A DNA stretch of 64,000 nt from an uncultured Mycoplasmatota bacterium (GCA_946629885.1 CAMOYI010000014.1:2013-66012); one strand, 5' to 3'. Numbered from the stretch's first letter, positions 3,057 to 50,340 are shown. Translations and numbers: made by a program. Notes: generated by a model from the sequence alone, not told the origin.

Positions 3057-6000
3057 TCACCTCACCACAATGTATTTATATATTTCGCCGACCATTGTCT
3101 CACCATCGTAAAGTTTAAATTCTAGTCTATATGTACCCGTTAATAAGTCAGTTGGAGTACTAAAAGACATAGAGTTCGTTGCATTTGGATTATCAAATAA
3201 GATATATTCATTCTGATTTGAACTTGCATTTAATTCTTCTATAATATAATCCTGTAGATCTACAGATTCAAATTCTTGAGTATATGTTGTATCATATTTT
3301 CTTCTAGACATTGAAAGTCTAATATTTGGGTTATCTAATAAAGATGAATACTCAACACTAAAATTGATATTGTTAGTTTCACCATTCTTTAAAATAACTG
3401 ATTCTGGATTAATTATAGGTTTTAATCCATAAGAACTACTTATAAAATTGAACTCCAAATTATATACGACTGGTGTTACTTTTTCAAAGTATACTCCATC
3501 CACAGAAGGAAATACTTCTATGACCATTGTGTAATTTCCAGTTGCTAGTAGCGAATTTTGTGCATTAAACATCAGCCACTTTTGGACATTACCAACTGCC
3601 TCAGATAGCGTTAAACGATAATAACCATTTATATCTGCTTGAACAGTTTTTGTACCATTAGTAATAGTTGTTCCAACTAAGTCTGTACCAGAGACAGTAT
3701 GACCGTTCTTGTCGACAAGATGCATCTGCATACCGAGTTTTTTATCGTTATTTTGTGTATCTATTACCACTAAACCATTTTGAGTAGTACTTTGATATCC
3801 AATAGATAGATTTAATACATCACTATATCCAACATAAAGTGGATCATCATCTAATGATGCATCGACAGTTATCACTGCATCTTTATCAGCGTATAAATTA
3901 TATGTAAGTTGATCTCGTTGCATACCTAAAACAGTAATTATCGATTCATCATTTACATCTCTCATCTCTAAGAGCAACGAATTTCCAAGTTTATCACTTG
4001 TTATATTTGAATCTTCAAAATCCACTATAAAGATAAATTCCTCATTACTATCAGTTCCATCATAGTATATAGAATTTCTACCTTGATCATCATAATATAG
4101 CGAACTGCCCTTAGTTCCCATAGTAACAAATGTAGAAAGATCATAAGAACATTCATTTTCCATACTAAATTCTTGAAGTGTTCTATTATAATCAGTTTCA
4201 TCAATTACATGATAATAGTATAGGTTGTTACCGTCTAATAATTCAATCATGGTTATCTTTGTACCTACTGGTAGTACAAAAGAAGAAGTCAACGCTCTAT
4301 GGTACCCAGGTTTATAAAGATTGACGTTACTACCATATAGACCATAATAAGCACTCAACTTGCTTTTTGATGTTATATTAGTCGTCGTAGATGCAAAAAG
4401 TTCATACTTATCGCCAGGTGTCATTGTTCCCTCGTATTCATTTGTTTGGAATAATGCTGTCGACATATTGACATTAATTACTAGTCTTTTAATTTCATTT
4501 TTCAAAGCATCTATCTTTGTTACTGCTATCATAGATATTCTAACTGTTCCCAAATCTTCTTCTATTGTAATGTTTTTTGAGTGGTGTAAATAGAAAAGGA
4601 ATGTAGGGACGGCATTAGTACTGTCTTTTTCGTAACTATCTCTTCCATATCTACTATTAGTTTGAATTGATTGAAATCCAGTACTACCTGGTGTAAGCCA
4701 ACCACTATTAGATGATTCCATAGATAAACCGAAATTACTATTCGCTTGAGTTTCACTTGAGGCAACCTTTGGTATTGATGCTTTATTAACGAGATTTATA
4801 CCTTGAGCCAAATCGGTAAAATCAAAACTTGTTATTGAAAATGTAGTATTTGGCTTTGCAAAATCCAAGAATGATGTTTCAACTGAACCGAGCGTAGAAT
4901 ATTTAGATGCAACTAAATTTACATTGTATTCGATTATGTTTTCACCTATAAACCACATATAAAATCTCGATGATTCAGGAGTCGGTCTAATATACTTAAC
5001 TTCATTAATCATAGTATCTTCATTCATGAAGTTACTATAGAAACCATTGATTTTTATATTATGGTTAGTTTCGTGCAATCCTAGAACGTAACTACCTTTT
5101 GAGAATGTTTCGTTCCAATCTAAAGTATCTCCTGGTGAATGATTGTTATTGTAGATACCCGTATTTACTGTGCCATCATTTGCATAATTGTAAATTCCAA
5201 AGAAACTCATTCCAATTACTTCACCGTAGTCAGTTACCTGTTGGTCTTTAGATATGTTGAGATTTCTTCCCTCATACATATATACTCTATTATTTACTGT
5301 CCTAGTAATTGTATTATTATCTTCGTCTATAGTTGCAGCAGCTGGAGTACCATCGCTAGTTAAACTTCTAAACTTCTTTAGAAGATTAGCTCCGGTTTCA
5401 AAGTATATTTCCGTATTGTTTTTAATTGTAAAGTCATCTACTCTACTTACTGCAAACAGCTCTTTATCGTAATCATTGGCTCTGTCAATTGCTCCTTTAA
5501 GTAGAATACTTGAGTTATCTATCGTTACATATGTTACTCTCTGAATAGAAATGTTTCTTTTAGGTGTACCTATGGTACCATAGTTACTGATATTTAAGTA
5601 ACTATCACCACTAGCACTCGAGGCATTACCACCGCCATAGAAAGAACCGTCAATTAGAAAATTGTTATATCCGCTAGCATCTATATCAATGTGTGTACCC
5701 TCTGTAACACTGATAAAGAACCAGTCATATATCTCTGATCCGCTTGCATTAGCTTCTCCACCGCCAAACACGTGTCCAAACACGTGGATGTCAGATTTTG
5801 TTAGTGATGAATCGTTCGAAATTGCATTAGAACCAATATTAACAATGGTATTACCATATACGACTGAAGTATTAGCGCCACCATAGATATTACCATAAAA
5901 AGTACCTCCTGCAATATTAACTGTACTTATTGAATTGTTATTGGCTTCCAATCCGGTGTACGCTTGATTACCTCCACCAAATACGCAACCACTCGTAGGG

Positions 6001-9000
6001 GCTTTACCATCTACTGAACCGATAGTAGTCTCGCCATCAATTGAAATATTTGCATTTCCTTCAAGCGTTGCGGTTAAGCCATTACCACCGGCATACGCAC
6101 TACCACCTATTGTTGCATCTGATATTGTAACAAATGATGAACCCTTTACAACGCCCTGGTTACCTCCGCCATAAACGTTTAATCTAATATTGCCGCCGTT
6201 GACATCAACATACGTATTACCAGTAACTTTAGCAAGGTTACCTCCTCCATAGATATTATTGATAGAGCCATCTTCTACAGTCACATTAGCTGTGGTAACA
6301 TCGCCAGTATTGTTTGACCCACCATAAATGTCGGTAATAGTTCCATCATTAAACAAAATATTCGTAGTAGTAACACCAGCATTATTACCTCCGCCAAATA
6401 CCGTACTTGACTCTCCACCATTGATGGTAATATTTGAAGTACCGCCATTCGCTCTATTTCCGCCACCATAGATGGTATTGTTTTGTCCACCGTTAAAAAT
6501 TATATTTGATGTAACAGTATTTCCACCAGCATTATTACCACCGTAAATCGTTTGAGCGACACCACTATTTACGGTTATATTGCTTTCAAGAACTGTTCCG
6601 CTCGAGTTAGATCCTCCAAACATATTTTGAACCGATATTTCGCCTTGTTGTACTATATTACTGGTGGTTACATTGGCACTATTTCCACTACCATATACAT
6701 TCGGTATAACTCCGTTTGCTTTATTTAGCGTAACATTAGTTGTCGTAGTATCTACTTGATTTCCACCACCATATACACTGCCATTAATGTTTGCAGTACC
6801 ATTTATCACTACATTAGTTGTAGCGCATGATCCACCTTCGTTATTGCCACCATAGACATTCTGAACAGTACCACTTGATATGTTAACTAGGGTGGTAGAT
6901 ACATCACCTAATGAATTAGAACCTCCATATATATTTGTAACTGTCGATCCCTTTTGATATATATGAGTGTTAGTAACACTTGACTTATTACCACCACCAT
7001 AGACATTTTCTATTGTACCAGCATTTAAATGTATTTCATTTTGTTTATCGTGTATGCCAGCTTGATCATTACCTCCAAACACATTTGAAATGTCGCCACC
7101 ATTTATCGTTACTGTAATATTTCCGACAACTTTTGGTGTATATGTAGTTGAACCTTTACCACCACCAAATAGTGATCCGACAATCGTTCCATCGTTAACA
7201 GTTACTGTCGTGTTATAAGAAGAACTAGTCGTATTTTCGTTAAGAGTATTTACAGAACCAAATGCTGATCCACCGTAAACATTACCTTCTACTCGGCCAT
7301 CATTTATTAAAACTGATACTCCATCTCTTACATATGTACCAGGATTATTTGAGTTTTGATAGCCACCTTCGCCACCGCCGTAAATGCTATTTACTATTTT
7401 ACCACCGTTCATCGTGACGTTTGTTGATCCATATATTGTTCCCTTTGTTCTCGATCCACCGTATACTGAATTGTTGATCGTTCCTCCGGTAACATCTATA
7501 TTTATAGTTGATGAAACATTATTTTTACCGCTGCCATTGTTATTTCCACCACCGTAAACGCTTCCTTCAATTGTACCATCTAATATTTTAATTTTTGTAT
7601 TAGTCGATCCACTCGATAGTATATAACCTGTGGCTCCGTAGTTGCCGCCACCATAAACATTACCTTTAATAGTTCCACCATTAATTAAAATATTTGAGTT
7701 ATTTACAGAACCTACTTGGTCATATCCACTTCTACCATTTCCAGCGCCAAATACACCACCTGGTGCTACGCCGTACATTCCAGTTTCATCGCCACCACCG
7801 ATATTTGCAGTGCCACCTATATAAACAAATGTGCTTCCAAATACTTCACCAGTCTGATTAGAGGCTCCAGTACTTTCACTACCATTTGATCCTCCAAAGA
7901 CACCGTATTTTACGTTACCACCTGTTACCGCTACAATTCTATTACCATACGTTGTAGATAATCCTGCTCCACCTACAATCATATCAATAGTTCCACCTTT
8001 TACATAGATGTACGTATCATTAGTATTATTTCTAGTACTTGCTGTAAATGGTCCTCCAATCAGATTGAAGATTACACCACCTTCTATAATTGCACTTCTA
8101 GCAGCATAGTGGTTAGTTCCTGAAGTACCACGACCACCAGAGTATATACCAAAGTCATAATCTAGCTTGCCATAGCCAAACTCACCACTTTTAACTATTT
8201 GAGTAATAGCTATAGAATTGCTATCTTTGCCATATAAGGCTCCTCCCCAGTTACCTGAAGCACAAAACCTTACTCTAAGCGTATTGTTGGCAGATTTTAC
8301 TCTGTCTATGTCACTACCCCAAATGGCCTTACCATCTACATATAGGCTTGTTCTAGAGGAAACAGCAGAACCAGTTGCACCTAGTTTATCATAGTGTCCA
8401 CTTTCTACTATAAATTTATATTTTTTTGGTGTCTCAGAAGAACCTATTTGACTTACATTACCAGCGTATGCTCCATTAGCACTATAGTACTCTGTAGTTC
8501 CAGAGTAACTAGTAACAGTTCTTCCAGTTATACCTCGTCCTATTTTTACATTATAATAGTTTCCATAAATATTATTAGAGGCAAGAGATGTATCTGGATT
8601 TGTGGACGGATTATTTTCATTACCAGCGAAATACGAAGTACTATACATTGTAACGTATTCGATTCTCAAATCCGCATTTGCATAAATATAGGCATTATTG
8701 ATGCCTATTCTTGCATCGTCCATATAGTTATTACCATTATTTAAAGAAGTAATTGTCATAGGTACGGTATTTCTAATATAAGTACTTGATTCTCTACTGA
8801 CATTAGCTCTTAAAACTAATACATTTGTATCTCTAGTGGTTAAATAATAGTATGTTTCATTTGGGTCCATTTCATTTAAGCTGCCATTTTCGTAGTATTG
8901 TTCGAGTTGATATACAGTACAACCGTTTCTTTGATTACAATTACCACTTTGAAGTTCCCCGGTATTAGAGTACATCCCATCGACGCTATAACCATTTCTT

Positions 9001-10757
9001 ATTGTTGTCCTAGTAAAATAACCTCCTACACCATTTGGCAATAGATTAACTATTTCTTCTGTATATGGTAGAAGAGATGCACCAGTATTTTCATTTAAAA
9101 TATAGTATGTAGCTGTTGGATCATATTCACTATCAGCTCTTACATAATAATCACATCCACCATAAGTTGTACAGTAATCATAGTATCCGCCATTATGAGG
9201 CTCTAGATAAGCCGAATATGATCCAGCTGGAAAGTCCTCATACCTTGAAATTCTGTATTTTAAAAAATATTGACTAAAATCTGTTATTCCTTCGTAAACT
9301 TTTCTGGTTTCAGTGGCCTCGATTTGCTGCATACCGGTTTTAAAGTTATTCGCTAAACTAGATAGTGTACTAGAACTGGTCAATTCATATACTACTCCAG
9401 TGTTCCAAATTGCATACATTGTAATACTAATTGGCTCTTCAACACTAGATACTGGAATTTTCACATATCTAGTATAATCAGTCATATCTATAGAGATTTC
9501 AGAACCTTCATAATCTGTAATCCATCCCATAAACACTTTAGATGTAGGTCTATTAGCGTAAGGGTTATCAATTAAGTCAATTGTAATATAACCATTTTCA
9601 ACGGGATAATACTTATAATATATGATATTTGAATATAGTTCAGTATCACTTACATAGCCGGTAAAATTGCCTGCAATATCAGTTCCAGAATATTTAATAT
9701 ATACTTTAGCTAAATTTTGATCAGTGTATTTATTTAGCCTGTTAAAGTCAGGAATATTTCCACTATCAGTAAAATACGTGTAGTCCATCGCTGTATAATA
9801 GTTCAAATCTGTAACTAAGTCATTTATATATACAGTATCACCGTCTATACCAGTGTTGTGTGCTTCGATAGTTGCACTTTTCAAAGGAACTTTAGAAATA
9901 TTTTTCTTTACAATGGTATTATTTTTAATGACTACGTTGTCATTAACTATTAATAAAGAGTAATTATCAACATTGATATTTTCAAGTAAAGGAGTTTTAT
10001 CATCTACTAATTCATAATAATTTATGTCTTCTGTACTATCGCCAATAATAGGTTTTAAATTAGCATTTACATATACATTATCAATCGATGTACCACTCTT
10101 ATCAATTACAATATCGGTTGAAAGATTGCTGTTTTCATTGACTAAAATATTAAAAATGACATTGTCTATAGATGAATCATTATCAACACGTGATAATAAA
10201 GCCACTTCTGATTGAGTTCCACTCGTATTGACAGCACCATTTATTGTCAATAATGAGAAATTTGAGTTATTAGATGTAGCCGTGAGTAAACCAGTATTAT
10301 TCGATATGTCAAATTTCATATCTGCAAAACTAATATTTTTAATGGTAGCGTTGTCAACTGAAGCGAAGATAGAATTAGTTACATGAGCATTGCTAATAGT
10401 ATGACCCAATCCATCAATCGCACCTGAGAAAGGGATCTTATTATTAATAGAAATGTTATGGTTACCATAATCAAAACTTTCAGTAATTAAATAATTTTTA
10501 TTAAAATATACAGACGAATCATCGCTTTCAAGAATATTCTTAAAATATGCAAATTCTCCGGCATTTGAAATTAAATATGGATTTTCGAGAGAACCAGTAC
10601 CACTCTTAAAAGATGTCGCAGCAACTCCGTCCCAGGCTGTGGTAGTAGTATCTACGCTAAAAGTCGAAACTATTTTCCACGATAAAAGAGAAATAACAAC
10701 AGTTACTATCAAAATAGGTATAAATTTATGCTTTTTTAGTATCGACTGCAATTTCAC
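3057..10757 (-). CDS. Giant secreted surface protein (2566 aa) with dozens of glycine-rich parallel beta-helix repeats of about 20-22 aa (Pmp-like GGxN/xxN repeats)
   Basis: N-terminal signal/TM segment (KHKFIPILIVTVVISLLSW). The central roughly 1000 aa is a tandem array of units such as TI.NVYGGGN....T.N..VN.G ([IV]YGG[GS]N recurring about 40 times). The C-terminal approximately 1300 aa is non-repetitive. No LPXTG motif. Confidence 0.8.
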   Translation of the reverse strand: MKLQSILKKHKFIPILIVTVVISLLSWKIVSTFSVDTTTTAWDGVAATSFKSGTGSLENPYLISNAGEFAYFKNILESDDSSVYFNKNYLITESFDYGNHNISINNKIPFSGAIDGLGHTISNAHVTNSIFASVDNATIKNISFADMKFDISNNTGLLTATSNNSNFSLLTINGAVNTSGTQSEVALLSRVDNDSSIDNVIFNILVNENSNLSTDIVIDKSGTSIDNVYVNANLKPIIGDSTEDINYYELVDDKTPLLENINVDNYSLLIVNDNVVIKNNTIVKKNISKVPLKSATIEAHNTGIDGDTVYINDLVTDLNYYTAMDYTYFTDSGNIPDFNRLNKYTDQNLAKVYIKYSGTDIAGNFTGYVSDTELYSNIIYYKYYPVENGYITIDLIDNPYANRPTSKVFMGWITDYEGSEISIDMTDYTRYVKIPVSSVEEPISITMYAIWNTGVVYELTSSSTLSSLANNFKTGMQQIEATETRKVYEGITDFSQYFLKYRISRYEDFPAGSYSAYLEPHNGGYYDYCTTYGGCDYYVRADSEYDPTATYYILNENTGASLLPYTEEIVNLLPNGVGGYFTRTTIRNGYSVDGMYSNTGELQSGNCNQRNGCTVYQLEQYYENGSLNEMDPNETYYYLTTRDTNVLVLRANVSRESSTYIRNTVPMTITSLNNGNNYMDDARIGINNAYIYANADLRIEYVTMYSTSYFAGNENNPSTNPDTSLASNNIYGNYYNVKIGRGITGRTVTSYSGTTEYYSANGAYAGNVSQIGSSETPKKYKFIVESGHYDKLGATGSAVSSRTSLYVDGKAIWGSDIDRVKSANNTLRVRFCASGNWGGALYGKDSNSIAITQIVKSGEFGYGKLDYDFGIYSGGRGTSGTNHYAARSAIIEGGVIFNLIGGPFTASTRNNTNDTYIYVKGGTIDMIVGGAGLSTTYGNRIVAVTGGNVKYGVFGGSNGSESTGASNQTGEVFGSTFVYIGGTANIGGGDETGMYGVAPGGVFGAGNGRSGYDQVGSVNNSNILINGGTIKGNVYGGGNYGATGYILSSGSTNTKIKILDGTIEGSVYGGGNNNGSGKNNVSSTINIDVTGGTINNSVYGGSRTKGTIYGSTNVTMNGGKIVNSIYGGGEGGYQNSNNPGTYVRDGVSVLINDGRVEGNVYGGSAFGSVNTLNENTTSSSYNTTVTVNDGTIVGSLFGGGKGSTTYTPKVVGNITVTINGGDISNVFGGNDQAGIHDKQNEIHLNAGTIENVYGGGNKSSVTNTHIYQKGSTVTNIYGGSNSLGDVSTTLVNISSGTVQNVYGGNNEGGSCATTNVVINGTANINGSVYGGGNQVDTTTTNVTLNKANGVIPNVYGSGNSANVTTSNIVQQGEISVQNMFGGSNSSGTVLESNITVNSGVAQTIYGGNNAGGNTVTSNIIFNGGQNNTIYGGGNRANGGTSNITINGGESSTVFGGGNNAGVTTTNILFNDGTITDIYGGSNNTGDVTTANVTVEDGSINNIYGGGNLAKVTGNTYVDVNGGNIRLNVYGGGNQGVVKGSSFVTISDATIGGSAYAGGNGLTATLEGNANISIDGETTIGSVDGKAPTSGCVFGGGNQAYTGLEANNNSISTVNIAGGTFYGNIYGGANTSVVYGNTIVNIGSNAISNDSSLTKSDIHVFGHVFGGGEANASGSEIYDWFFISVTEGTHIDIDASGYNNFLIDGSFYGGGNASSASGDSYLNISNYGTIGTPKRNISIQRVTYVTIDNSSILLKGAIDRANDYDKELFAVSRVDDFTIKNNTEIYFETGANLLKKFRSLTSDGTPAAATIDEDNNTITRTVNNRVYMYEGRNLNISKDQQVTDYGEVIGMSFFGIYNYANDGTVNTGIYNNNHSPGDTLDWNETFSKGSYVLGLHETNHNIKINGFYSNFMNEDTMINEVKYIRPTPESSRFYMWFIGENIIEYNVNLVASKYSTLGSVETSFLDFAKPNTTFSITSFDFTDLAQGINLVNKASIPKVASSETQANSNFGLSMESSNSGWLTPGSTGFQSIQTNSRYGRDSYEKDSTNAVPTFLFYLHHSKNITIEEDLGTVRISMIAVTKIDALKNEIKRLVINVNMSTALFQTNEYEGTMTPGDKYELFASTTTNITSKSKLSAYYGLYGSNVNLYKPGYHRALTSSFVLPVGTKITMIELLDGNNLYYYHVIDETDYNRTLQEFSMENECSYDLSTFVTMGTKGSSLYYDDQGRNSIYYDGTDSNEEFIFIVDFEDSNITSDKLGNSLLLEMRDVNDESIITVLGMQRDQLTYNLYADKDAVITVDASLDDDPLYVGYSDVLNLSIGYQSTTQNGLVVIDTQNNDKKLGMQMHLVDKNGHTVSGTDLVGTTITNGTKTVQADINGYYRLTLSEAVGNVQKWLMFNAQNSLLATGNYTMVIEVFPSVDGVYFEKVTPVVYNLEFNFISSSYGLKPIINPESVILKNGETNNINFSVEYSSLLDNPNIRLSMSRRKYDTTYTQEFESVDLQDYIIEELNASSNQNEYILFDNPNATNSMSFSTPTDLLTGTYRLEFKLYDGETMVGEIYKYIVVR

Positions 10758-10820
10758 TTCTAAGCCTACTTTCCTATTGTTTATTTTATCATAATTAGTA
10801 GAAAAAGGGAATAATTTAGC

Positions 10821-10846
10821 AAAAAAAAAGAAGATAAAATCTTCTT
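10821..10846 (-). terminator. Strong intrinsic terminator between the 368-aa TasA-like gene and the giant gene
   Basis: Minus-strand RNA folds as AAGAAGAU-UUU-AUCUUCUU followed by U9. Confidence 0.7.
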
Positions 10847-10851
10847 AATTA

Positions 10852-11958
10852 TTAAGCCTCATTTGCTTCTCTAATACTTAACTCTAGATTGAATGTAATA
10901 TCTGTACCAGAAGCATTGTTTTCACAGTCAATATCTTGACCTTCAATCCACATGTATACACGCATCTTAGTAACACCTGCATTAAGTGTGAATATGTTAT
11001 AGTCAGTATTAGCTGCCAATGTGCCAGGAGTTGATAGTAACAATCCAGAAGTAGAATATACTCCACCAGAATTTGAAACAGTTCCAGCAGATACTACTTC
11101 AGAGAAAGTAGTGCTATCATATTGAGTAACTGTACCCTTAACTGCACCGATTAAATCCTGTGCTTTATTTGTAGGTATTGCAGCTTTAATACCATAATAT
11201 GTAACTGGATTACCACCACTTGCAGTTAATGCGTTAGAACCAGTGAAACCATATTCAGTACCAACACTGTTGACAACAGCAGTTGAGTGTAAATCGTTAT
11301 TAGGTTCCCAAATTTTAATTGATGGGAAATTCGTGTAATATGCTTGAGTTATTTCTTGAACAGTTGCAGTTGATGCAGCTTCACCAATAGGAACGAATGC
11401 TACACGAGCTGCATTTTTAAGACCTCTATCAGAAGATCCCTCAGCCATAACTACATTTGAACCACTATCAGAGGTATTGATGTATACCTTTTTCTTTGCA
11501 CTAACCTTGAAGAATAGATCAAATGCGACAAATTTTGTTCTGTCTGTTGATTCATCTACTGAATTAGTAGCAAGTGTATATGCACCACTTGTTGCATCAG
11601 TACCGATAACACTACTAAACATATTTAAAACTCTTGTCTTACTTGAACTGTTTTCTGTTGTTGCACCAGAAGTAGATACTGCATCTAATGTTTCTGGGAT
11701 AAAGTTGTTTGCGCCAGAATAAGCTCCAGTTTTAATATCAGATTGAGTAACTACTGATTTCCAAGTACTACCATTTGTTGAAATCTGCAAACCGTCGCTT
11801 GTCTCAACGTGTACATTGATGCTTTCGATATTTACAACTCTATTTGCAGTAAACCATGCATAAGTCGATGCACCAAACATTACGATTGTTAAAAACAATA
11901 GTAATATTAATGATCTAAATTTTTTGTTCTTTTTTTCACTTTTTTTAGCTTTAGCCAT
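10852..11958 (-). CDS. TasA/camelysin-like secreted protein with SipW-cognate signal peptide (368 aa)
   Basis: N-terminus K-rich, then hydrophobic, then GASTYAWFTAN, compared with TasA GGGTWAAFND and CalY GGGTFAFFSD. C-terminal motif RVYMWIEGQDIDC is shared with the paralogs. AGGAG RBS. Confidence 0.7.
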   Translation of the reverse strand: MAKAKKSEKKNKKFRSLILLLFLTIVMFGASTYAWFTANRVVNIESINVHVETSDGLQISTNGSTWKSVVTQSDIKTGAYSGANNFIPETLDAVSTSGATTENSSSKTRVLNMFSSVIGTDATSGAYTLATNSVDESTDRTKFVAFDLFFKVSAKKKVYINTSDSGSNVVMAEGSSDRGLKNAARVAFVPIGEAASTATVQEITQAYYTNFPSIKIWEPNNDLHSTAVVNSVGTEYGFTGSNALTASGGNPVTYYGIKAAIPTNKAQDLIGAVKGTVTQYDSTTFSEVVSAGTVSNSGGVYSTSGLLLSTPGTLAANTDYNIFTLNAGVTKMRVYMWIEGQDIDCENNASGTDITFNLELSIREANEA

Positions 11959-11977
11959 ATAATACCAACTCCTATAT

Positions 11978-12691
11978 CTATTTTTGTTCTATGTGCTCTT
12001 CAGTGATTGTCATATGCATTTTTATTTCTCCACCAAGAAGTGCGTCGGTACAATCCGGATCATCTCCTTCAATCCAAACGACGATAGTAAATCTATCTAA
12101 ATCATCCGGTTTAAAATCCGATACTTTCTCCAAAATAATTGTGCCTTGATTATCTTCGATGTCTTCAAATGGCACAGTATCCTTTTCTGGTTCGCCATTT
12201 AAATGATTTTTCTTAGCGTATGTAGTAGCTTCACCATTTCTATAAATTCGTATCCTTATTGCCTTGTCGACATTTTTTATTATGTCATCGACAATCACTT
12301 CATAGTGATAGTTAAGCACTTCATTTCCTTGGTTTTCAATAAAAAATGTGTATGCTATATAGTTTTCTCCGTTATGCGAACCTTCGCCTTCCTCGTCGAT
12401 GTTCTTTGGGAGCCACTTGTACGATATGTTGTCCATGAACTTTATCGGCGTCGCCTCAAGTTTTCTTTTACCGTGCGAGTTATTAAGACTATCAAATATT
12501 GCCATTCCGCTTTCTAAAGTTTTATTAGAATCTAATGTAACTGTGAACCTACCTTCATTATATATTATTTCGAGAATAATATATAAAACAATTAGAAACA
12601 AGAGTAAAATCAGGAGTGAGCGTCTTACGATTCTTACTACTTTTTTTCTCTTCTTAACCTTATTGGCGGTTACAACAACCTCCTTAGCCAT
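11978..12691 (-). CDS. TasA-like family membrane-anchored protein (237 aa)
   Basis: N-terminal K/R-rich region plus TM anchor. C-terminal FTIVVWIEGDDPDC motif is shared with the neighbouring paralogs. No clear AxF cleavage motif. Confidence 0.6.
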   Translation of the reverse strand: MAKEVVVTANKVKKRKKVVRIVRRSLLILLLFLIVLYIILEIIYNEGRFTVTLDSNKTLESGMAIFDSLNNSHGKRKLEATPIKFMDNISYKWLPKNIDEEGEGSHNGENYIAYTFFIENQGNEVLNYHYEVIVDDIIKNVDKAIRIRIYRNGEATTYAKKNHLNGEPEKDTVPFEDIEDNQGTIILEKVSDFKPDDLDRFTIVVWIEGDDPDCTDALLGGEIKMHMTITEEHIEQK

Positions 12692-12906
12692 AACATCACC
12701 ACATCACATATTGATATCATCTACCATACGTCAATATCGTAAAATATTTTTGGTAAAAAGTCAATATAATTTTTTCGTTAATTATCGAATCACAATTAAC
12801 TCTATTTTATGTAAATTTTGGTGTAAAATGTCAAAAAAAAACGATATTTTCGACAAAAATCATCTTAATTTTTGTAAAATTAAGTTAAGGAAAGGAGTAA
12901 TGGTAA

Positions 12907-13506
12907 GTGAAAAAGCTATTTGAAAAAAAACAAATACGAGTTTTGATGGCCTGTATTTCTCTATTACTCCTAGTAAATCTCATTCAAGAAACATATGCTA
13001 AATATATTTCATCGGCTGATGCAAGTGGAAATTTTACTATTGCAAAATGGGTATTTAATATTAATAATCAAGATGTTTTGGCAAATAGCGATTTCTCTGA
13101 AGTCGTTGTCCCTGTTTTAGAAGATAATGACTATATAGTCGATGGAGTTATTGCACCGACAGCAAAGGCTTACTTTGAAATTACAATTGATTCCACTGAC
13201 GTCGATGTCGCATACACAGAAAACATTACTGTCACTAAAGATGAAAATAATACAGTCTCAGATTTAATTATAACAGGCTATAAAAAAAATGATGGACCAC
13301 TTATAACTGTAAGTGATCCAGAAACATTGACATTAAGTCAAGAATATGATTTAGGAGAGCAAGGAACTAATAAATATACATTTTATTTAGAATGGAATGA
13401 TGACGAAAATGAAGAAACCATGGACAATGCCATGGATACTCTTCAAACTATTGATGGTGTTGCTGCCTTTAATGTAACTGTGAATTTTGTACAAAATGCT
13501 AGCTAG
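12907..13506 (+). CDS. TasA-like secreted protein with SipW-cognate signal (199 aa)
   Basis: GTG start at 12907 after an AAGGAAAGGAG RBS. Contains ETYAKYISSADASG, GVIAPTAKAYFEITID and FYLEWNDDEN motifs. Ends VQNAS*. Confidence 0.65.
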   Translation: MKKLFEKKQIRVLMACISLLLLVNLIQETYAKYISSADASGNFTIAKWVFNINNQDVLANSDFSEVVVPVLEDNDYIVDGVIAPTAKAYFEITIDSTDVDVAYTENITVTKDENNTVSDLIITGYKKNDGPLITVSDPETLTLSQEYDLGEQGTNKYTFYLEWNDDENEETMDNAMDTLQTIDGVAAFNVTVNFVQNAS

Positions 13507-13513
13507 CATTTTG
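13492..13513. repeat. 22-nt perfect palindrome CAAAATGCTAGCTAGCATTTTG forming the shared 3' end of two convergent TasA-like genes
   Basis: Read directly from the sequence. Both genes terminate with codons for Q-N-A-S-stop inside the palindrome, with an 8-nt overlap at 13499..13506. Confidence 0.9.
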
Positions 13514-14122
13514 AGTAATAGTTATTTTAACTTTTATTGCAATCGTAGGATTACTAGGATTGCTTTTTTTGTAGTTACTCGCATTTATTCCCCATTCTGT
13601 ATCTGCTTCATCATTGTCATTTTCATATGGCCATACTAAGTCAAAGTTAACCTTTTCAATACCTGTACCAGCCTGTAAGTTTGTATTAGATCTGCTTATT
13701 TCTAATGAAAACGGATAATTATTTAATAATTCACTTTCGAGTTGTGTACTAGTTTTATCATCACTTTGTACAGGTTGATTATAATAACCTTTTCCTTCTT
13801 GTGATATATATGTGTTGTCGAGTAATCTAACTTCTAGTATCTCATAAGTTAGTGATGCCGACATTTCACTTCTATTATATGCTTTAACCTCATAATGATA
13901 ATCATCCATGCCTGGATATATACTATCGACATTTACATTGATTATGTTGGTAACTTCGTTTTCACCTGCTTCAAAGAGTACGTCCCATCCCTTTACGTGA
14001 ACTGAAACTGATCCATCAATTTTAGTTGCATAAATAAACCATGCAAATGTATTTGCAGAAATTAAAACCACAAGTATGATAAGCCTAAATATCTTACTGT
14101 TTTTGTTTTTTTTCTTAGACAT
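13499..14122 (-). CDS. TasA-like secreted protein with SipW-cognate signal (207 aa)
   Basis: N-terminus K-rich, hydrophobic, then ANTFAWFIYATKIDG. Contains FDLVWPYENDND motif. Ends TQNAS*. Confidence 0.7.
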   Translation of the reverse strand: MSKKKNKNSKIFRLIILVVLISANTFAWFIYATKIDGSVSVHVKGWDVLFEAGENEVTNIINVNVDSIYPGMDDYHYEVKAYNRSEMSASLTYEILEVRLLDNTYISQEGKGYYNQPVQSDDKTSTQLESELLNNYPFSLEISRSNTNLQAGTGIEKVNFDLVWPYENDNDEADTEWGINASNYKKSNPSNPTIAIKVKITITQNAS

Positions 14123-14658
14123 TAGTCATCGTCCTCTTCATCAGTATCATCTCTGTTGATTAATGGATTTAATATCTCATATGCAAGACTTACACCAACA
14201 GCCACAAACATGATATAGTACAAAACGACATTAGTCATCGCTCTACCAATTAAACTAAAGATGAGCGTATGATAGACTACTTTACCATAAACGCTGTCTT
14301 CAGTTATCTCTGGATCTTCAAATTCATTTGCAGTTCCTTTTGTTGTGAAAAAATATTTTTCTTTTTCTTTCCTGATGTTTATTATTCTGTGTGTTATTGT
14401 GAGCCCTTTTAGCTCATTTTTTTCACCTAAATACGTTATGTCATCACCTATTTTAAGGGAACTTGCGTTTTCCTTTTTAACAACAATTATATCTCCGGCA
14501 TGGTATTTTGGTAACATACTTTCCGAAACAACTTGAAAAATATATACATTACCGAGCGCAATTTTGTTATTAGTAACCTTTTGTAAAATAGTAAGTGCTA
14601 AAATAAATACCAGGAAGCAGGTTACTATCCATCTTAAAATCTTCAAAGCTTTTTTCAT
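14122..14658 (-). CDS. sipW: Signal peptidase I, ER/archaeal type (SipW-like, Ser/His dyad)
   Basis: N-terminal TM segment. SESMLP box (catalytic Ser) and TITHRIINI box (catalytic His in place of the Lys of P-type SPases). Confidence 0.8.
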   Translation of the reverse strand: MKKALKILRWIVTCFLVFILALTILQKVTNNKIALGNVYIFQVVSESMLPKYHAGDIIVVKKENASSLKIGDDITYLGEKNELKGLTITHRIINIRKEKEKYFFTTKGTANEFEDPEITEDSVYGKVVYHTLIFSLIGRAMTNVVLYYIMFVAVGVSLAYEILNPLINRDDTDEEDDD

Positions 14659-14668: not shown

Positions 14669-15775
14669 CTATAATCTAGTATTTTCTATCTTGTCTAAGA
14701 AAGCTTTGATACGATCTTGAAACGCATTTTGTATCTCACTCAGACTAGCTTCTTTTTTTGTCTTAATAACAGCTATTTTGTCGCCAATGCGTTCTTGTAA
14801 AGTTGTAAGTGGCATATCTAGATTCAACTCCACAATTCGCTGAATAAGATTATCAGTAATTTCTTGAATAACTTCCTTCTTTTTGTCTTCGTTTGTCTTT
14901 TCACTTAGAGTACTCATAGCTAAGTAGTCCATCAAGAATGTATTATTCATATACTCTTTTAAAATGCCGTTATCTTCGTAGTTCTTTTTCGACTTAACGT
15001 TTTTTGTATCATCTGCCACATGATTTTGTAAAAAGTCCCAAAGTCTCATAGCATATTGGAAATTGGTATTTTTTAAAATGACATTTGTCTTCTTTATTGG
15101 TGGAATTACTCTTGCAACATGTAGCTTTTTAAGAGTTTTATAGACTTCTGTGTTACAAAGCATTGTTATGTCATCATCTAGCCTTTTAATTCTATCTTCT
15201 ACTGGCAATTCACCTGCAGGACCTTTTTTATCGATTAGACTCGATGTATAGTTTAGCTCAATAAAAACCTGTTCTTTCCCAATGCTGCTCTTCGCTGTAT
15301 ATTTTGCCTTTTTAACATCCTTTAAACTAGACTCGGTAATAATACTTTTCTTCTTTATTTCTACGAAGTTTCTCATATTGTTTATTAGAGTATATATTAA
15401 TCTGTTTTCATATGTATCGTAGCTTTCATCTTTGTTTGTGTTTAAAATTTTTGATGGTTTAACATCTCCATTGTCTTCAATTTTTTGTATAAAATTAGTA
15501 TGCTTTGCGAGGTGCTTGATGCTTTCGACAGTTGTACGTCTTGCAAGTTCAATTTTGACGATTTCTTCTTCATTAACAATAAATCTATTGGGATTTCTTA
15601 AAATATTATCTATATAGTGTATTGTGTCTTCCATTATATCTAGCCATTCAAAATCAACTTCCACCTTATTTATATCAGTAGATATAGCAAGACTAGAGCG
15701 AGTGTTATTGCTGAATTTATTGACATCATTTTCACTCGCTTCTCTTAGTAAATTAATAATTTTCAGATTGTTCAT
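14669..15775 (-). CDS. Hypothetical cytoplasmic protein, 9 bp downstream of the McrB-like NTPase (candidate McrC-like or adaptor partner)
   Basis: 368-aa ORF, tightly coupled to its neighbours. No PD-(D/E)xK motif was recognisable by eye. Confidence 0.45.
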   Translation of the reverse strand: MNNLKIINLLREASENDVNKFSNNTRSSLAISTDINKVEVDFEWLDIMEDTIHYIDNILRNPNRFIVNEEEIVKIELARRTTVESIKHLAKHTNFIQKIEDNGDVKPSKILNTNKDESYDTYENRLIYTLINNMRNFVEIKKKSIITESSLKDVKKAKYTAKSSIGKEQVFIELNYTSSLIDKKGPAGELPVEDRIKRLDDDITMLCNTEVYKTLKKLHVARVIPPIKKTNVILKNTNFQYAMRLWDFLQNHVADDTKNVKSKKNYEDNGILKEYMNNTFLMDYLAMSTLSEKTNEDKKKEVIQEITDNLIQRIVELNLDMPLTTLQERIGDKIAVIKTKKEASLSEIQNAFQDRIKAFLDKIENTRL

Positions 15776-15783
15776 TGCATCAC

Positions 15784-17307
15784 CTATGCCATCTTCTTAA
15801 GTCGCAACAAATACTCAATACATTCAGACATTTTATTCTCTCCAAAAGTATCATTTAAGAATTTGATAAATCCATCTATTTCATCTCTGATGTATGCAAT
15901 ATTTAATTGTTCAAATTTCCTCAAAATTTTACGCGCAATAAAGTAATCGATACCTCTTATTTCATCTCCTCCGCAGGCTACAAATACAGGTACAAACTTT
16001 TTCATATGCGCAACTATTCTGTTACCGAAGGCAATACGGAAGTGTTTGATTACATAATCATCCATTTCCTCTATTTTCTTTAAATTGTCTTCATGAATTT
16101 GGTTATTTGCAATTGCATCCTGGAAAAGTTTATCTACATATGAATAATTTATGTCTTGACTAGGTGTATCAATTGGTTCAAAAACAGTACCTTTGTCATT
16201 GATGTCGATCGGCATAGCACGGTCGTATACCTTATCAGTAACCATAAATGTCGAGTCATCGTTATTTATTGTACCTATGTACCACACATTTGCTGGTATC
16301 TGTAATTTACCTTCTTTTAAGTGAACTGGGTCATTCTTCCATGCGCTTGGAACAATTTCTACAATCCACTCGTTTTTATCAGGCATTTCCAAAATAGATA
16401 GCATCTCTGCAAAATAGTATTCCACACGAGAAATATTCATCTCATCTAATATTACTGTGTATATGTCGTCTGTGTAACTTGCAACATACAATTCCTTTAA
16501 AACTTCAGTTTCGTTAAATCTCTTAGTAAACTCATTAAAGTATCCAAACAATTCTGTTCTATCACGCCACGATGGTTGAACCGAGGCAATACATGAATCG
16601 TGTTTTAAAAATTTTCCCCAGGCATAAGCTAGCGATGTTTTACCTGTACCAGAAATACCTTGCAAAATTACAAGCTTTGTCGATGCTAAAGCTGAAATAA
16701 AGAGTCTTATCATATCAGTAGTATAATATAATCTTAACTGACTAGCAGCAAAGTTTCTAAATAGTTCAACTAGCTCAGGCAATTCAAAACTGTTTCCATA
16801 ATTCTGAACCTTATAATCTTTAAATTTGTAGTCGACATCGGTCAATTTTGGGAATCTAATTTCAGTATTAGGATCAACTGAGTCATCTTCTTGTGTAACA
16901 TCTTCAGTATCAGATTCATCAGGCTTTAGTCCAAGTTTAGAAACCTTCATCGCGAGAATTGTTTCCTTTTCTTTCATGAGTTTCGCAACTTCATTATTTA
17001 GGGTTCCAACCTCCTCAAGAAGAGACTCTTGTTCAACTAAAGACTTTCTAATTCTGATATACTTTCTGATTAAGAAATATATTCCAAGCACTATTAAAGT
17101 TAAGAACGCCAAAGTTATAAGTATGGCAAGACCGACTAACAACCATTCAGGAATCGAGAAATCGTTTTTATATTCTCCTACTACCCTTACGTACTCTGGA
17201 ATATTAAATACAGATTTAAATCCCTTAACAAGACCATTAAATATATACTTTATTCCATTAAATATTTGAGATAAAAACTCGTATAAGAATCTCAAAAATG
17301 TATCCAT
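15784..17307 (-). CDS. Membrane-anchored McrB-family AAA+ GTPase/ATPase
   Basis: Two N-terminal TM helices plus a coiled coil. Walker A GISGTGKTS. McrB-type Walker B and sensor ILDEMNISRVEYYFAEMLSILE (compare McrB DEINRA). WYIGTINNDDST (compare McrB GTMNTAD). Confidence 0.75.
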   Translation of the reverse strand: MDTFLRFLYEFLSQIFNGIKYIFNGLVKGFKSVFNIPEYVRVVGEYKNDFSIPEWLLVGLAILITLAFLTLIVLGIYFLIRKYIRIRKSLVEQESLLEEVGTLNNEVAKLMKEKETILAMKVSKLGLKPDESDTEDVTQEDDSVDPNTEIRFPKLTDVDYKFKDYKVQNYGNSFELPELVELFRNFAASQLRLYYTTDMIRLFISALASTKLVILQGISGTGKTSLAYAWGKFLKHDSCIASVQPSWRDRTELFGYFNEFTKRFNETEVLKELYVASYTDDIYTVILDEMNISRVEYYFAEMLSILEMPDKNEWIVEIVPSAWKNDPVHLKEGKLQIPANVWYIGTINNDDSTFMVTDKVYDRAMPIDINDKGTVFEPIDTPSQDINYSYVDKLFQDAIANNQIHEDNLKKIEEMDDYVIKHFRIAFGNRIVAHMKKFVPVFVACGGDEIRGIDYFIARKILRKFEQLNIAYIRDEIDGFIKFLNDTFGENKMSECIEYLLRLKKMA

Positions 17308-19826: not shown

Positions 19827-20669
19827 CTACTTAACCTTCGAGTCAATTCTCCTTCTTATTTCGTTTAGATCCAATCTGACAGTATAATTTATAAAGTTTT
19901 TTTCTTTCTCGGAAAGTCTTAGTGGCAATTCTTCACTGCCTTCTTCAATTTTATTTATTTCGCATTTTATATTGTTCAATTCTTTTTTATTGAGTTTTAT
20001 ACCTGGCTCTTCAATCAGTTTATTTATTTCTGATATATCTATTTTTCTTGTCAATTCTAGTAGTTGTTCAGGCTCTCTAAATATATCAGATTTATTTTCT
20101 TCCGACTTCACTTCAGTAATTATTATTGGATTTTCCAGTTCAGTTTCTTTTTTCTTTTCATCGATTTTTTGTTCATCTTTTTTATTGTAAGATAGAGCAA
20201 AATCGAAGAGTAACAATGTTACAAATAGTGCAATAATTATTTTTGGATCAGTCAATACCTTTTTCCACAAGCCTAAGTGAGGAAATATTTTTACCACAGG
20301 TCCAATTATTTGATCTATTTTAATTGGTTTATCTACAGTATTGTTGTTATCACCTTTTACTATAACGCTATCGCCATCGATATATACAACACGGTGAGTA
20401 ATAACAGATTCTCCGTCAGTAAAAGCTATTATGTCGTCCTTTTCTATATTTTTGTTTCCAAACTTTACTGCAATTACATCGTTGATATCTAGGGTTGGTT
20501 TCATTGAACCACTTGCAACTTCAAAGAAAGTATACCCAAAGTAATTCGGATACAACTTATTTGAGAATGTGACACTGACTTTTCCATAAATTATGAGAAC
20601 TAATATTGCTAATAGTATATAAGTAAGACCATTTATAGTTATTTTTACTATCTTTTTAATATAGTTCAT
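19827..20669 (-). CDS. Signal peptidase I, ER/archaeal type (second SipW-like) with a roughly 110-aa K/E-rich C-terminal extension
   Basis: TM segment, then SGSMKPTL and VITHRVVYI boxes, a second TM segment, then a charged tail. Confidence 0.75.
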   Translation of the reverse strand: MNYIKKIVKITINGLTYILLAILVLIIYGKVSVTFSNKLYPNYFGYTFFEVASGSMKPTLDINDVIAVKFGNKNIEKDDIIAFTDGESVITHRVVYIDGDSVIVKGDNNNTVDKPIKIDQIIGPVVKIFPHLGLWKKVLTDPKIIIALFVTLLLFDFALSYNKKDEQKIDEKKKETELENPIIITEVKSEENKSDIFREPEQLLELTRKIDISEINKLIEEPGIKLNKKELNNIKCEINKIEEGSEELPLRLSEKEKNFINYTVRLDLNEIRRRIDSKVK

Positions 20670-44812: not shown

Positions 44813-46339
44813 CTACTCACTTTGTATTCTTTCAAATAACGGACTTGGTGTTTTAGATACCGTATATTTTAAATTATCAATAAATTTGGCCTCTTTAAAA
44901 CTGTTATTTTCTGAATTAATAGTTTCAATAACTTTTTTAGTACTCGTCGGCATAAATGGCATCAATAGTATATTAGATACTCTTATAGCTTCGAGCAAAT
45001 TATAAAGAACTGTTTCAAGTCTTCCTTTTTTAGTTTCATCCTTGGCAAGCACCCAAGGTGTCGTATCATCTATATATTTATTACAAGCTCTAAGCAAATC
45101 AAATATATTTTCTAATATTTTAGAAATTTGTAATTCGTCTAATAGTTTATCGGTTCTTGACTTAAGTGAACTAATATCATCAACTAGTGGTTTGTCAATA
45201 TCTTCGTTAACTTTAGAATTACTAATCGTGCCGTCAAAATATTTGTTAGCCATGCCCACTGTTCTATTGACTAGATTTCCCCATACATTAGCAAGGTCAC
45301 TATTTATTCTTCCGATTAATGCTTCTTCTGAGAAATTGCCATCAGAACCAAACGGTATTTCTCTTAAAACATAATATCGAACTGCGTCTTTTCCATATTT
45401 TTCAATATATTCTCTAGGATCTCTATAGTTGCCTAAACTTTTAGAAATTTTACCGCCATCTATAATTAACCATCCGTGGCCAAATACTTTTTTTGGAAGC
45501 GGCAAATCTAATGCCATTAACATAATTGGCCATATTATCGTGTGAAATCTAACTATTTCTTTTCCTACTATATGCACATCTGCAGGCCAATATTTCTTCA
45601 TAAGGGTCTCATCATCACTCAAGTAACCTAAAGCAGTTAAGTAGTTCGATAACGCATCTATCCAGACATATACTACGTGATTAGTATCAAAAGTAACAGG
45701 AATCCCCCACTTAAAACTTGTCCTAGATACACATAAATCTTCGAGGCCAGGTTTAATAAAATTGTTAATCATCTCATTTTTTCTTGATTCAGGTTGAATA
45801 AAATCAGGGTGTTCTTCTATATATTTTTCGAGCCTGTCTTGATAATTGGATAGTTTTAAGAAATATGCTTCTTCCTTTACTAGCTGAACTTCTCTACCGC
45901 AGTCTGGACACTTTCCTTCTACTAATTGTGTTTCTGTCCAAAACGATTCACAAGGAGTGCAGTATAAACCTTTGTATTCACCTTTGTATATGTCTCCTTG
46001 ATCGTATAGTTTCTTAAATACCTTTTGTACACATTTTACGTGATCTTCATCTGTAGTTCTAATAAACCTGTCATATGAGATATCTAACTGTTTCCATAAA
46101 TCTTTCGCATTTGCTACAATTTTATCTACATATTCTTTTGGTGTAACACCAGTTTCACTTGCCTTTTTTTCTATTTTTTGTCCATGCTCATCGCTACCAG
46201 TAAGAAAAAATGTATCAAATCCATCAAGTCTTTTATATCTCGCAATTGAGTCTGCAATTATTGTACTGTAACAATGTCCTATATGAAAATTTGCAGATGG
46301 ATAATAAATGGGTGTGGTAATATAAAAATTTTTGTTCAT
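44813..46339 (-). CDS. metG: Methionine--tRNA ligase (short form)
   Basis: HIGH motif (NFHIGHCYS), KMSKS motif (KISKSLGN) and a zinc knuckle CPDCG. Confidence 0.95.
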   Translation of the reverse strand: MNKNFYITTPIYYPSANFHIGHCYSTIIADSIARYKRLDGFDTFFLTGSDEHGQKIEKKASETGVTPKEYVDKIVANAKDLWKQLDISYDRFIRTTDEDHVKCVQKVFKKLYDQGDIYKGEYKGLYCTPCESFWTETQLVEGKCPDCGREVQLVKEEAYFLKLSNYQDRLEKYIEEHPDFIQPESRKNEMINNFIKPGLEDLCVSRTSFKWGIPVTFDTNHVVYVWIDALSNYLTALGYLSDDETLMKKYWPADVHIVGKEIVRFHTIIWPIMLMALDLPLPKKVFGHGWLIIDGGKISKSLGNYRDPREYIEKYGKDAVRYYVLREIPFGSDGNFSEEALIGRINSDLANVWGNLVNRTVGMANKYFDGTISNSKVNEDIDKPLVDDISSLKSRTDKLLDELQISKILENIFDLLRACNKYIDDTTPWVLAKDETKKGRLETVLYNLLEAIRVSNILLMPFMPTSTKKVIETINSENNSFKEAKFIDNLKYTVSKTPSPLFERIQSE

Positions 46340-46344: not shown

Positions 46345-46581
46345 CTTCCTTTCATAAAAAAAATCACGAACTAAAGGACGAAATAAAATCCGCGGTACCA
46401 CCTTAATTCATGATTACATGCACTTTTGATCTTTAACGATATCACCCGATTGAACTCCAAAACCATGTTCAACTATTTCGTATATTCTTTTTCACCAAGC
46501 AAGAACTCTCTAAAATACTACGTAGTCTACTCTTTTCTTCATCGCTCATTGCGTTAACTATACCACACAATAAGGACAATA
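46345..46581 (-). promoter_or_regulatory. T-box riboswitch leader of metG (Met specifier)
   Basis: Minus-strand RNA contains AAUUAAGGUGGUACCGCGG at 46390..46408 (T-box consensus AAUUAGGGUGGNACCGCG), followed by a U8 run and the RBS. There is a candidate AUG specifier (GCGAUGAAG) about 140 nt upstream. Confidence 0.55.
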
Positions 46582-50100: not shown

Positions 50101-50340
50101 TGAAACTGCGACAGCAACAGATGTTATGAAATCATCCATTGGAAAAAGAAGACAATCATCAACATATGTCTTCATTAATTTGTAAATATTATTTGCTTCG
50201 TATAGTGTATTTGTTAAAACTACAACATTTTTATCGTTATTTTTATAGTAATTTGCTATATACTGTGTAAAAAGTTCATCTGTCAATCCAAGAACTGTTT
50301 TGGTGTCATCATATTTAAATATATTATTTATGCATTTCAT
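47113..50340 (-). CDS. mfd: Transcription-repair coupling factor
   Basis: 1075 aa with helicase motifs LLCGDVGYGKTEVA and DEEQRFG and a TRG motif region. Confidence 0.95.
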   Translation of the reverse strand: MKCINNIFKYDDTKTVLGLTDELFTQYIANYYKNNDKNVVVLTNTLYEANNIYKLMKTYVDDCLLFPMDDFITSVAVAVSPDFMYKRLEVMEKLKRENKQHLLITPLMGYLKFLPNIGEENKFVIDPSPSIISREIILSKLDLFGYNKVSIVTSTGEYAVRGYIVDIFPIDYEHPIRIEFFDNDVDSIKLFDELTQRTIEKIDSVEIKRILETDDDNPSSIYDYMNDCSTFIINENQIKIAYNQLCEDMFKYIISKNLDENHQFMFKLEDILPNSCFKIDTLNTYSGKDYIIYESREITNFNSDLKKLKDFCLSNLADKKIIVACNSDKQINEIESLFNDVTYIKDDEPVKNRINIYKGNVNKGFIIGDYIVISPYDIDNTKSKEVKYKTNYRIGTRIKSFDDIKVGDYIVHEAYGIGIYNGLKTLKSKSYVKDYIQLLYQGEDKIYLPVDNIDKLFKYETREGEAPKLNKLNSPVWEKKKLETRKKIHDISQELLELYMNRAKVKTTPYIEYDEEMKFAFSFPYTLTSDQEKAINDINHDLSLEYPMDRLLCGDVGYGKTEVAFRAMFKTVLNAHQVAYLCPTTILSRQQYLSALERFKDFPVNIELLNRYVPDKKVKEIYKKIEDGTVDIVIGTHKLLNDGIKFKRLGLLVIDEEQRFGVTHKEKIKKIKDDVNVLTLSATPIPRTLKMAMSGLRSLSILDTPPVNRYPIQTYVIEENDLIIRDAIYKELSREGQIYVLINNIEEMETYSNKIRNLVPEARIICAHGKQDSQLINDTMERFVNKEYDILVCTTIIETGIDISNVNTIIIIDADKFGLSQLYQIRGRVGRSDRIAYAFLMYNPRKILSEIAEKRLNSIKEFTALGSGYKIAMRDLSIRGAGDLLGSEQAGFINSVGIDLYTKMINEEVEAIKDGVTPNNEEQKKSSLDVSNHISDEYVSDDAVKIEIHKMINSISSKSDLQEVKSELEDRFGKIDETIEIYMLKQLVDNYVERLNLNIIKTENDITIILSEESSACINGEKLFLQLYNVNPNIKISYRNKKIVILMKTVNLKKNYIYYMYDIVIMLNDLISIKP
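49929..49951. repeat. 23-nt sequence aaattatttcccgggaaataatt (containing a 22-nt perfect palindrome) inside mfd, identical to a copy at 56461..56483
   Basis: Exact 23/23 identity read directly from the sequence. Within mfd it encodes IISREIIL. Confidence 0.9.

Follow-up and report, generated by a model that had tools for sequence, protein, structure and literature searches.

The window analysed here is a 64,000-nucleotide (nt) stretch of DNA from an uncultured Mycoplasmatota bacterium (GCA_946629885.1, CAMOYI010000014.1:2013-66012), in which two convergent genes, here called A and B, end within the same 22-nt perfect palindrome. This palindrome is most probably not a designed element but a structural by-product of the 8-nt overlap between the two opposed stop codons (the -8 overlap), of a C-terminal tail shared by both proteins, and of codon bias. 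The two genes, the palindrome and the overlap are located as follows.

12907..13506, plus strand: gene A, 199 amino acids (aa), GTG start, N-terminal helix and β-sandwich, conserved family of unknown function
13499..14122, minus strand: gene B, 207 aa, N-terminal helix with an NTFAWFIYA motif and β-sandwich, conserved family of unknown function
13492..13513, both strands: 22-nt perfect palindrome CAAAATGCTAGCTAGCATTTTG, formed by the last four codons and the stop of each convergent gene
13499..13506, both strands: 8-nt gene overlap CTAGCTAG with two opposed TAG stops

In the window sequence, the palindrome consists of two 11-nt arms with zero spacer. Gene A ends with CAA AAT GCT AGC TAG, read as QNAS and stop, and gene B ends on the minus strand with identical codons and, therefore, with the same tetrapeptide; the stop codons lie at 13504-13506 (plus strand, gene A) and 13499-13501 (minus strand, gene B) and are separated by 2 nt. 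The original prediction, made from the sequence alone, had described the perfect 22-nt palindrome, the convergent genes, the shared QNAS tail, the 2 nt between the stops and the 8-nt overlap, all of which are correct. It had also considered that an assembly error, such as a collapsed inverted repeat, might lie behind the palindrome, but this is very unlikely and was rejected, since the identical 22-mer is present in three further assemblies of the same organism (ENA ERZ28612944, Logan SRR873610 and NCBI GCA_001684375.1; loci L001-L003) and the -8 geometry is also found in eight related lineages from other studies. The length of the palindrome is unremarkable and not very rare, with perfect palindromes of half-length at least 11 arising in 15 of 200 first-order Markov simulations of a 64-kb window of the same composition and four other long perfect palindromes occurring in the window itself. 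The specific feature is that it is centred exactly on the stop/stop overlap, a position that is explained by the overlap geometry.

Two TAG stops placed 2 nt apart on opposite strands force the core CTA[AG][TC]TAG, and the -8 geometry forces, in both proteins, a penultimate codon NCT (Ala, Pro, Ser or Thr) and a last codon ANN. In addition, each protein family has an invariant Gln in its alignment, Q196 in A and Q204 in B, which closes the last predicted β-strand of the A and B models and leaves the final three residues as coil; the residue that follows it is Asn, Lys or Arg in both families, and the tail past the Gln is short (2-3 residues), small or polar, and variable. The forced core and the invariant Gln followed by Asn, Lys or Arg together account for the 7-8 of 11 palindromic pairs that every -8 relative already possesses. 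Once QNAS stands at the end of both proteins and the overlap is -8, GCT and AGC are forced, and codon bias (CAA 75%, AAT 76%) yields a perfect palindrome with a probability of 0.39. The suggestion that a conserved C-terminus is under selection holds for the invariant Gln and the small or polar character of the tail, but not for the exact QNAS, given that the nearest relatives carry QKAN or QKAS in gene A and QNPS, QNPN, QNTN or QNSN in gene B.

The junction was compared across 44 genome loci and the contigs of the closest relatives, both gene ends being located in each; a metagenome scan for close relatives of gene B yielded only three loci, one of which ends before the junction. The convergent arrangement of B and A is present in about 45 loci, down to approximately 30-35% identity, with a spacing that runs from +45 to -14 nt, and the pair is thus ancient, but its junction highly variable. 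Loci with a gap of 8-45 nt carry textbook bidirectional terminators, made of an A-tract, a stem-loop and a T-tract and folding at -10 to -17 kcal/mol, and in loci with a gap of 2-9 nt the stems take in stop codons and tail codons. Two junctions of this intermediate kind are found at L009 6616-6630 and L010 6586-6593 (gaps of 9 and 2 nt, respectively), where the terminator stem derives partly from the stop and last codons of both genes, e.g., AGCTAATTAGTAATACTAATTAGCT; they look like snapshots of a spacer in the course of becoming coding sequence. Overlaps of -4, -8, -11 or -14 nt are present in many lineages, with 17 non-redundant overlapping loci spanning -4 to -14 nt, and the -8 overlap occurs in L004, L005, L006, L018, L025, L036, L048-51, L055/56 and L060. 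A neighbour-joining tree places the window within a clade of 77-84% identity in gene B, all members of which have the -8 overlap.

Within this close clade, the residue at position -2 of gene B is encoded by TCT, ACT, GCT or CCT, that of gene A by GCT in all members, and for the central dinucleotide each of the four possible [AG][TC] combinations is found (AT, GC, GT and AC), which give Asn or Ser in both proteins. The lineage of the window differs from its relatives in three respects, namely Ala at residue -2 of B, the central GC, and Asn in A; the Asn codon of gene A (13495-13497) is a Lys codon in all close relatives, one base change at 13497 separating the two. Comparison with orthologous loci, proposed in the original prediction as a check, revealed that neither the palindrome nor the exact QNAS is conserved in the sister lineages. 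Moreover, a second lineage, L057-59, independently has a 26-nt palindrome with one mismatched pair that is built on a -4 overlap at TTAA; thus, near-palindromes arise recurrently, through different overlaps, as a by-product of the A/B gene pair.

As RNA, the palindrome can indeed fold as had been suggested, into a 9-base-pair (bp) stem with a 4-nt loop and three G-C pairs, at -9.3 kcal/mol (z = -2.6 versus shuffles). The proposal that this hairpin acts as a bidirectional terminator is, in that form, not supported. On neither strand is the stem followed by a U-tract (GAGUAAUAG on the plus strand, UACAAAAUU on the minus strand), the only run of U at the palindrome (4 nt) is itself part of the stem, a consensus terminator scan does not call the palindrome, and Rfam gives nothing significant at its locus. 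The hairpin is also not conserved, being absent or weak in the -8 sister lineages, whose 7-8 of 11 pairs fold at 0 to -3.8 kcal/mol, and it is weaker than the hairpins of the spaced relatives. In all six sister lineages with the -8 overlap, one gene uses CAA for its Gln and the other CAG, so that nothing points to selection for pairing. The palindrome resembles bidirectional intrinsic terminators in lying at the same genomic position as the textbook hairpins of the spaced relatives, in its A4/T4 flanks and in its capacity to form a stem-loop; however, its stem is A-U rich, lies wholly in coding sequence without a free U-tract, is unconserved in the sisters, and is accompanied by stronger signals further downstream in both directions. 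The junction hairpin is probably not the terminator, and better candidates lie 57 nt (plus strand) and about 54-210 nt (minus strand) further on, each inside the coding sequence of the partner gene.

13539..13570, plus strand: candidate intrinsic terminator of gene A, antisense in gene B codons YKKSNPSNPTIA
13402..13445, minus strand: candidate terminator T1 of gene B, antisense in gene A codons (D)ENEETMDNAMDTLQ
13283..13320, minus strand: candidate terminator T2 of gene B, antisense in gene A coding sequence

The candidate of gene A comprises the hairpin GCAATCGTAGGATTACTAGGATTGC (13539-13563) and a run of seven T (13564-13570), and it starts 57 nt past the stop of A. T1 has a hairpin from 13445 to 13410 (-14.0 kcal/mol) with the tail TTTTCGTC from 13409 to 13402, and T2 an 11-bp hairpin from 13320 to 13293 (-13.6 kcal/mol) followed by TCATTTTTTT; the two lie approximately 54-210 nt past the stop of B. 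When a hairpin of -10 kcal/mol or lower within 36 nt, followed by a T-tract, was sought across the window, the plus strand gave only three matches in 64 kb, one of them the candidate of gene A, and the minus strand gave six, of which T1 is the strongest and T2 the second strongest, the others being mostly intergenic, as would be expected of genuine terminators. Hairpins in a place equivalent to T1 are found in L004, L050 and L060, and T2 has counterparts at the same position in L004, L048 and L055 and a weaker one in L049. Embedded terminator-like signals are present in 15 of the 17 loci with an overlap or a gap of at most 2 nt versus 1 of the 17 with a gap of at least 8 nt (Fisher p = 2e-6, non-redundant loci, uncorrected for phylogeny), and the position of the gene A candidate is matched in 12/17 overlapping versus 1/17 spaced loci. 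Relatives have the gene A hairpin at the same codons, and some of the differences in its stem are compensatory (GCAAT/ATTGC versus GTAAT/ATTAT); 78.4% of the cells of this stem are paired, against 72.7% for shuffles (none of 500 as high), with nine double-change cells versus 3.6 expected (0/500).

These observations are best explained by a sequence of steps. A and B, unrelated-looking but similarly built, have stood tail to tail since long before the lineage of the window emerged, and distant relatives still have between them a spacer of 10-45 nt with a classic bidirectional intrinsic terminator. In the clade of the window, this spacer would have been lost, the TAG stops interlock over 8 nt, and the termination signals seem to have moved into the coding sequence of the partner, to 13539-13570 for A and to 13445-13402 and/or 13320-13283 for B. 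The change of Lys to Asn in gene A at 13497, together with the preferred CAA and AAT in both genes, would have completed the symmetry, the final substitutions being presumably neutral. Since the candidate terminators lie beyond the stop of the partner, the mRNAs of A and B should have complementary 3' ends of about 170-290 nt, with the palindrome in the middle.

Several points weigh against this reading. The perfect palindrome needs Ala in B, Asn in A, the central GC and concordant Gln codons all at once, and the product of the clade site frequencies is about 0.006, a rough and post hoc figure for one lineage among many. The Lys to Asn change in gene A is unique among eight close relatives, and the junction hairpin (-8.9 to -9.3 kcal/mol) is clearly stronger than those of the sister lineages. 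Regarding the embedded signals, the Fisher test ignores shared ancestry, the clade of the window contributing 6 of the 17 overlapping loci; the covariation is modest and comes from only 17 related sequences, with the structure derived from one of them; and termination at the embedded hairpins, as it appears from these data, is a prediction. The strength of the junction hairpin and the coincidence of several states leave some room for a lineage-specific role of this hairpin.

Such a role could have arisen if the hairpin had been selected after the loss of the intergenic terminator, in order to pause or position converging RNA polymerases, in a collision-assisted form of bidirectional termination, or to stabilise the 3' regions of both mRNAs, which is possible but unlikely. 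The fold of the hairpin (-9.3 kcal/mol, z = -2.6) is far stronger than in the sister lineages, it sits exactly at the position of the bidirectional terminator of the spaced relatives, its A4/T4 arms around a G+C core follow the layout of the palindromic terminator-like sites that this genome has near gyrA (see below), and a near-perfect junction palindrome is also found in L057-59. Moreover, according to a published single-molecule study, head-on collisions between convergent genes take place at defined positions only when a nascent stem-loop is present (Wang, Watters, Ju & Liu, bioRxiv 10.1101/2022.10.23.513370). However, a stem with only three G-C pairs, with no single-stranded U-tract after it and not called by the scan, is not conserved in the six sister lineages that share the overlap, all of them with discordant Gln codons; strong canonical terminator signals are close by in both directions, and any ribosome that reaches the stops would open the stem. 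A more elaborate version, in which the shared C-terminal codons, in lineages whose intergenic bidirectional terminator was lost to the overlap of the stops, are being recruited by templated mutation and/or selection as a minimal stem-loop that fixes the collision of RNA polymerases, with the embedded terminators as back-stops, is a speculative scenario and rather unlikely. If true, the recruited stem-loop and the reciprocal embedded terminators would constitute a three-layer, dual-coded termination module made entirely of coding sequence.

The last step towards perfect symmetry might, instead, have been a templated mutation at a quasipalindrome, in which a template switch copied one arm onto the other and so turned the AAA (Lys) of gene A into AAT (Asn), a route that is compatible with the by-product reading but is itself improbable. 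Lys is present in A in all close relatives and in the outgroup L057, at the position paired with the third base of the Asn codon of B, so that the inferred ancestor would be a quasipalindrome with exactly that mismatch, i.e., a 10/11 palindrome (QNAS in B, QKAS in A) forming a hairpin during replication. Imperfect inverted repeats are established mutational hotspots, at which template switching makes the two arms alike (PMC7202029, PMC8794818, PMC8604942), and the present case is similar in that an inverted repeat with one mismatched pair, as inferred for the ancestor, would have given way to a perfect one. It differs, however, in that a single base is involved and the signature is not diagnostic, a one-base change being indistinguishable from ordinary substitution. 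Furthermore, L057-59 keep the same mismatch uncorrected, and the approximately four changes in 22 nt estimated for the branch of the window would correspond to the expectation from overall divergence.

An origin of A and B by inverted duplication, with the palindrome as the surviving junction, is very improbable. The original prediction had regarded A and B as paralogs, and the alignment of the two proteins that it suggested as a check revealed no significant similarity (BLASTP E = 0.49; hhalign of the family profiles, probability 2%, E = 0.023). The two proteins do share the same architecture, and the single alignment returned by hhalign brings approximately the last 55 residues of each into register, through W, the acidic loop, DT, the last strand and Q. 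In addition, a 21-nt inverted match of 76% links 13396-13416 and 13595-13615, at mirror-image positions about 100 nt from the centre of the palindrome, where A and B encode their acidic loops (WNDDENEE and ENDNDEADTE, respectively); the match may be a weak remnant of common ancestry or may simply reflect the similar codon composition of two acidic stretches. Nevertheless, the perfect repeat breaks off after 22 nt, the proteins are not significantly similar, and the junction of this old pair differs in every other lineage, many of which have unrelated spacers; any duplication would therefore be far older than the palindrome and could not explain it. The comparative data thus refute a recent inverted duplication of A and B, including the one with its junction exactly at the stop codon that had been put forward, and neither show nor exclude an ancient one.

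That the palindrome is a DNA site for a protein or enzyme, whether a recombinase or invertase, a restriction-modification system targeting GCTAGC or CTAG, or an operator, is hardly credible despite its perfect dyad symmetry, its two overlapping GCTAGC and two CTAG and the opposite orientation of gene A, alone across 64 kb, which at first suggested an invertible segment, because the window has no second copy of the half-site, even at one mismatch, the orientation of gene A is ancient and fixed, the palindrome sequence is unconserved in the sister lineages, neither motif is avoided in the window (GCTAGC, 10 observed versus 4.1 expected; CTAG, 153 versus 175), and no recombinase gene was seen beside the palindrome. 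The lack of a second half-site and the ancient orientation of gene A led to the rejection of an invertible segment or recombinase site.

Gene A is the sole plus-strand gene in the 64 kb, the remaining long non-nested open reading frames (ORFs) all being on the minus strand, and its GTG start is preceded by AAGGAG with a spacing of 9 nt. The AlphaFold (AF2) models of A and B (pLDDT, the predicted local distance difference test, 77 and 83.7, respectively) each have an N-terminal helix followed by a β-sandwich. Searches gave 179 homologues for gene A and 302 for gene B; neither family carries any annotation, and the hosts are uncultured rumen or gut bins assigned to Bacilli, "Erysipelotrichaceae" or "Mollicutes". 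Two further features adjoin the pair.

14122..14658, minus strand: archaeal/SipW-type signal peptidase I gene (TIGR02228), directly upstream of gene B
12692..12906: 215-bp intergenic region between the divergent gene A (plus strand) and a gene for 237 aa (minus strand)

The intergenic region presumably holds both promoters of the divergent genes, and a scan of 12692-12906 found no more promoter-like matches upstream of gene A than in shuffles. The signal peptidase ORF matches TIGR02228 above its cut-off (2e-24, 86 bits, cut-off 51.85) and the SipW equivalog model NF046067 below its cut-off (8e-17, 61 bits, cut-off 190), and its synteny with gene B is kept in relatives. A second S26/S24-type signal-peptidase-like gene (19827-20669, minus strand, 280 aa) belongs to the same co-directional run, some 5 kb further upstream, and is also found in L001.

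The original prediction had further called A and B TasA-like, a label that is not established. Pfam gave no match for A or B at E ≤ 0.1 and NCBIfam no relevant match in either family, and none of the 41 members of the B family or the 40 of the A family matched the TasA/camelysin profile (Peptidase_M73) at E ≤ 0.01. Likewise, profile searches of Protein Data Bank (PDB) sequences at E ≤ 10 did not retrieve TasA with A or B, and Foldseek was weak, with TasA (5of1_B) at rank 9 for the gene B model (E = 0.06, probability 0.15, template modelling (TM) score ~0.2) and only generic β-sandwiches for that of gene A. In operons of the tapA-sipW-tasA type, a SipW signal peptidase is encoded together with the secreted fibre proteins cognate to it. 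The locus resembles these operons in the signal peptidase that adjoins gene B and in several small neighbouring proteins with an N-terminal hydrophobic helix, a T[FY]A[WK][FY] motif and a β-sandwich; it differs in that no member of the A or B family matches TasA/camelysin or any other curated model and in that the peptidase falls under the SipW equivalog cut-off.

Downstream on the minus strand, three genes in 3057-12691 encode two proteins of 237 and 368 aa and a giant one of 2566 aa, all with a hydrophobic helix at the N-terminus and none with a Pfam domain. The two smaller proteins have a common C-terminal motif, W-I-E-G-x-D-x-D-C followed by the last strand, which resembles the W, acidic loop and last strand of A and B, and all the proteins of the cluster around A and B may belong to a single family of envelope or fibre components. 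Upstream of the signal peptidase (14669-17307, minus strand) lie a DUF2357 protein of 368 aa and its partner, an McrB-like AAA protein of 507 aa with an N-terminal membrane helix that matches the PADLOC candidate defence family PDC-M26A at 1.5e-35. This AAA/DUF2357 pair is also found, in conserved synteny, directly upstream of the signal peptidase and B/A in relatives L048, L050, L057 and L060, and an McrBC-like module beside a secretion or fibre-like cluster is an unusual pairing.

Elsewhere in the window, three long, perfect palindromes, AATGTTCCACGTGGAACATT (56407-56426), TTTATGTTCCACGTGGAACATAAA (56440-56463) and TAAATTATTTCCCGGGAAATAATTTA (56460-56485), are packed between the 3' end of gyrA (56499-59066, minus strand) and the signal recognition particle (SRP) RNA gene (56288-56371, minus strand), and their layout of A-tract, palindrome and T-tract suggests stacked bidirectional terminators. 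The palindrome AATTATTTCCCGGGAAATAATT of 56460-56485 recurs about 6.5 kb away at 49930-49951, followed by GAGGGGGAGGGG, within the span of a long minus-strand ORF (47113-50340); it could be a repeated element or could mark a mis-called ORF boundary. A T-box leader (Rfam RF00230, 110.9 bits) is located at 46371-46551 (minus strand), upstream of a gene for 508 aa (44813-46339).

The junction of A and B is not a new kind of arrangement, but falls among tail-to-tail overlapping genes, and among bidirectional terminators or 3'-overlapping convergent transcripts. As in the convergent overlapping genes of compact bacterial genomes, two conserved genes of opposite orientation have their 3' ends in common, the short overlap is phase-locked by the stops (CTAnnTAG here, TTAA or YTAR in the -4 relatives), and the overlap restricts the last codons of both proteins; the difference is that the shared C-terminal motif extends the obligatory core symmetry, 6 of 8, to a perfect 22-mer, an extension that is specific to this lineage. 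In Firmicutes, 3'-overlapping mRNAs or excludon-like arrangements occur, in which convergent transcripts have long complementary 3' ends. The predicted terminators of A and B would create a similar situation, as they lie beyond the stop of the partner and imply the predicted overlap of about 170-290 nt; in this case, however, the terminators would be dual-coded in the coding sequence of the partner instead of lying in untranslated regions.

The palindrome itself matters little, as perfect symmetry can follow almost automatically from the overlap geometry, a shared tail and codon bias, and it represents a caution for scans that are based on sequence only. More can be learned from the gene pair, in which every stage is represented: spacers that hold a classic bidirectional terminator, stems into which the stops have been drawn, and interlocked stops with embedded terminator-like hairpins. 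The series of A/B junctions is, in this sense, a natural experiment on the relocation and dual-coding of termination signals in compacting genomes, and it predicts long complementary 3' ends for the transcripts of two co-located envelope or secreted proteins in this uncultured group of rumen and gut Bacilli.

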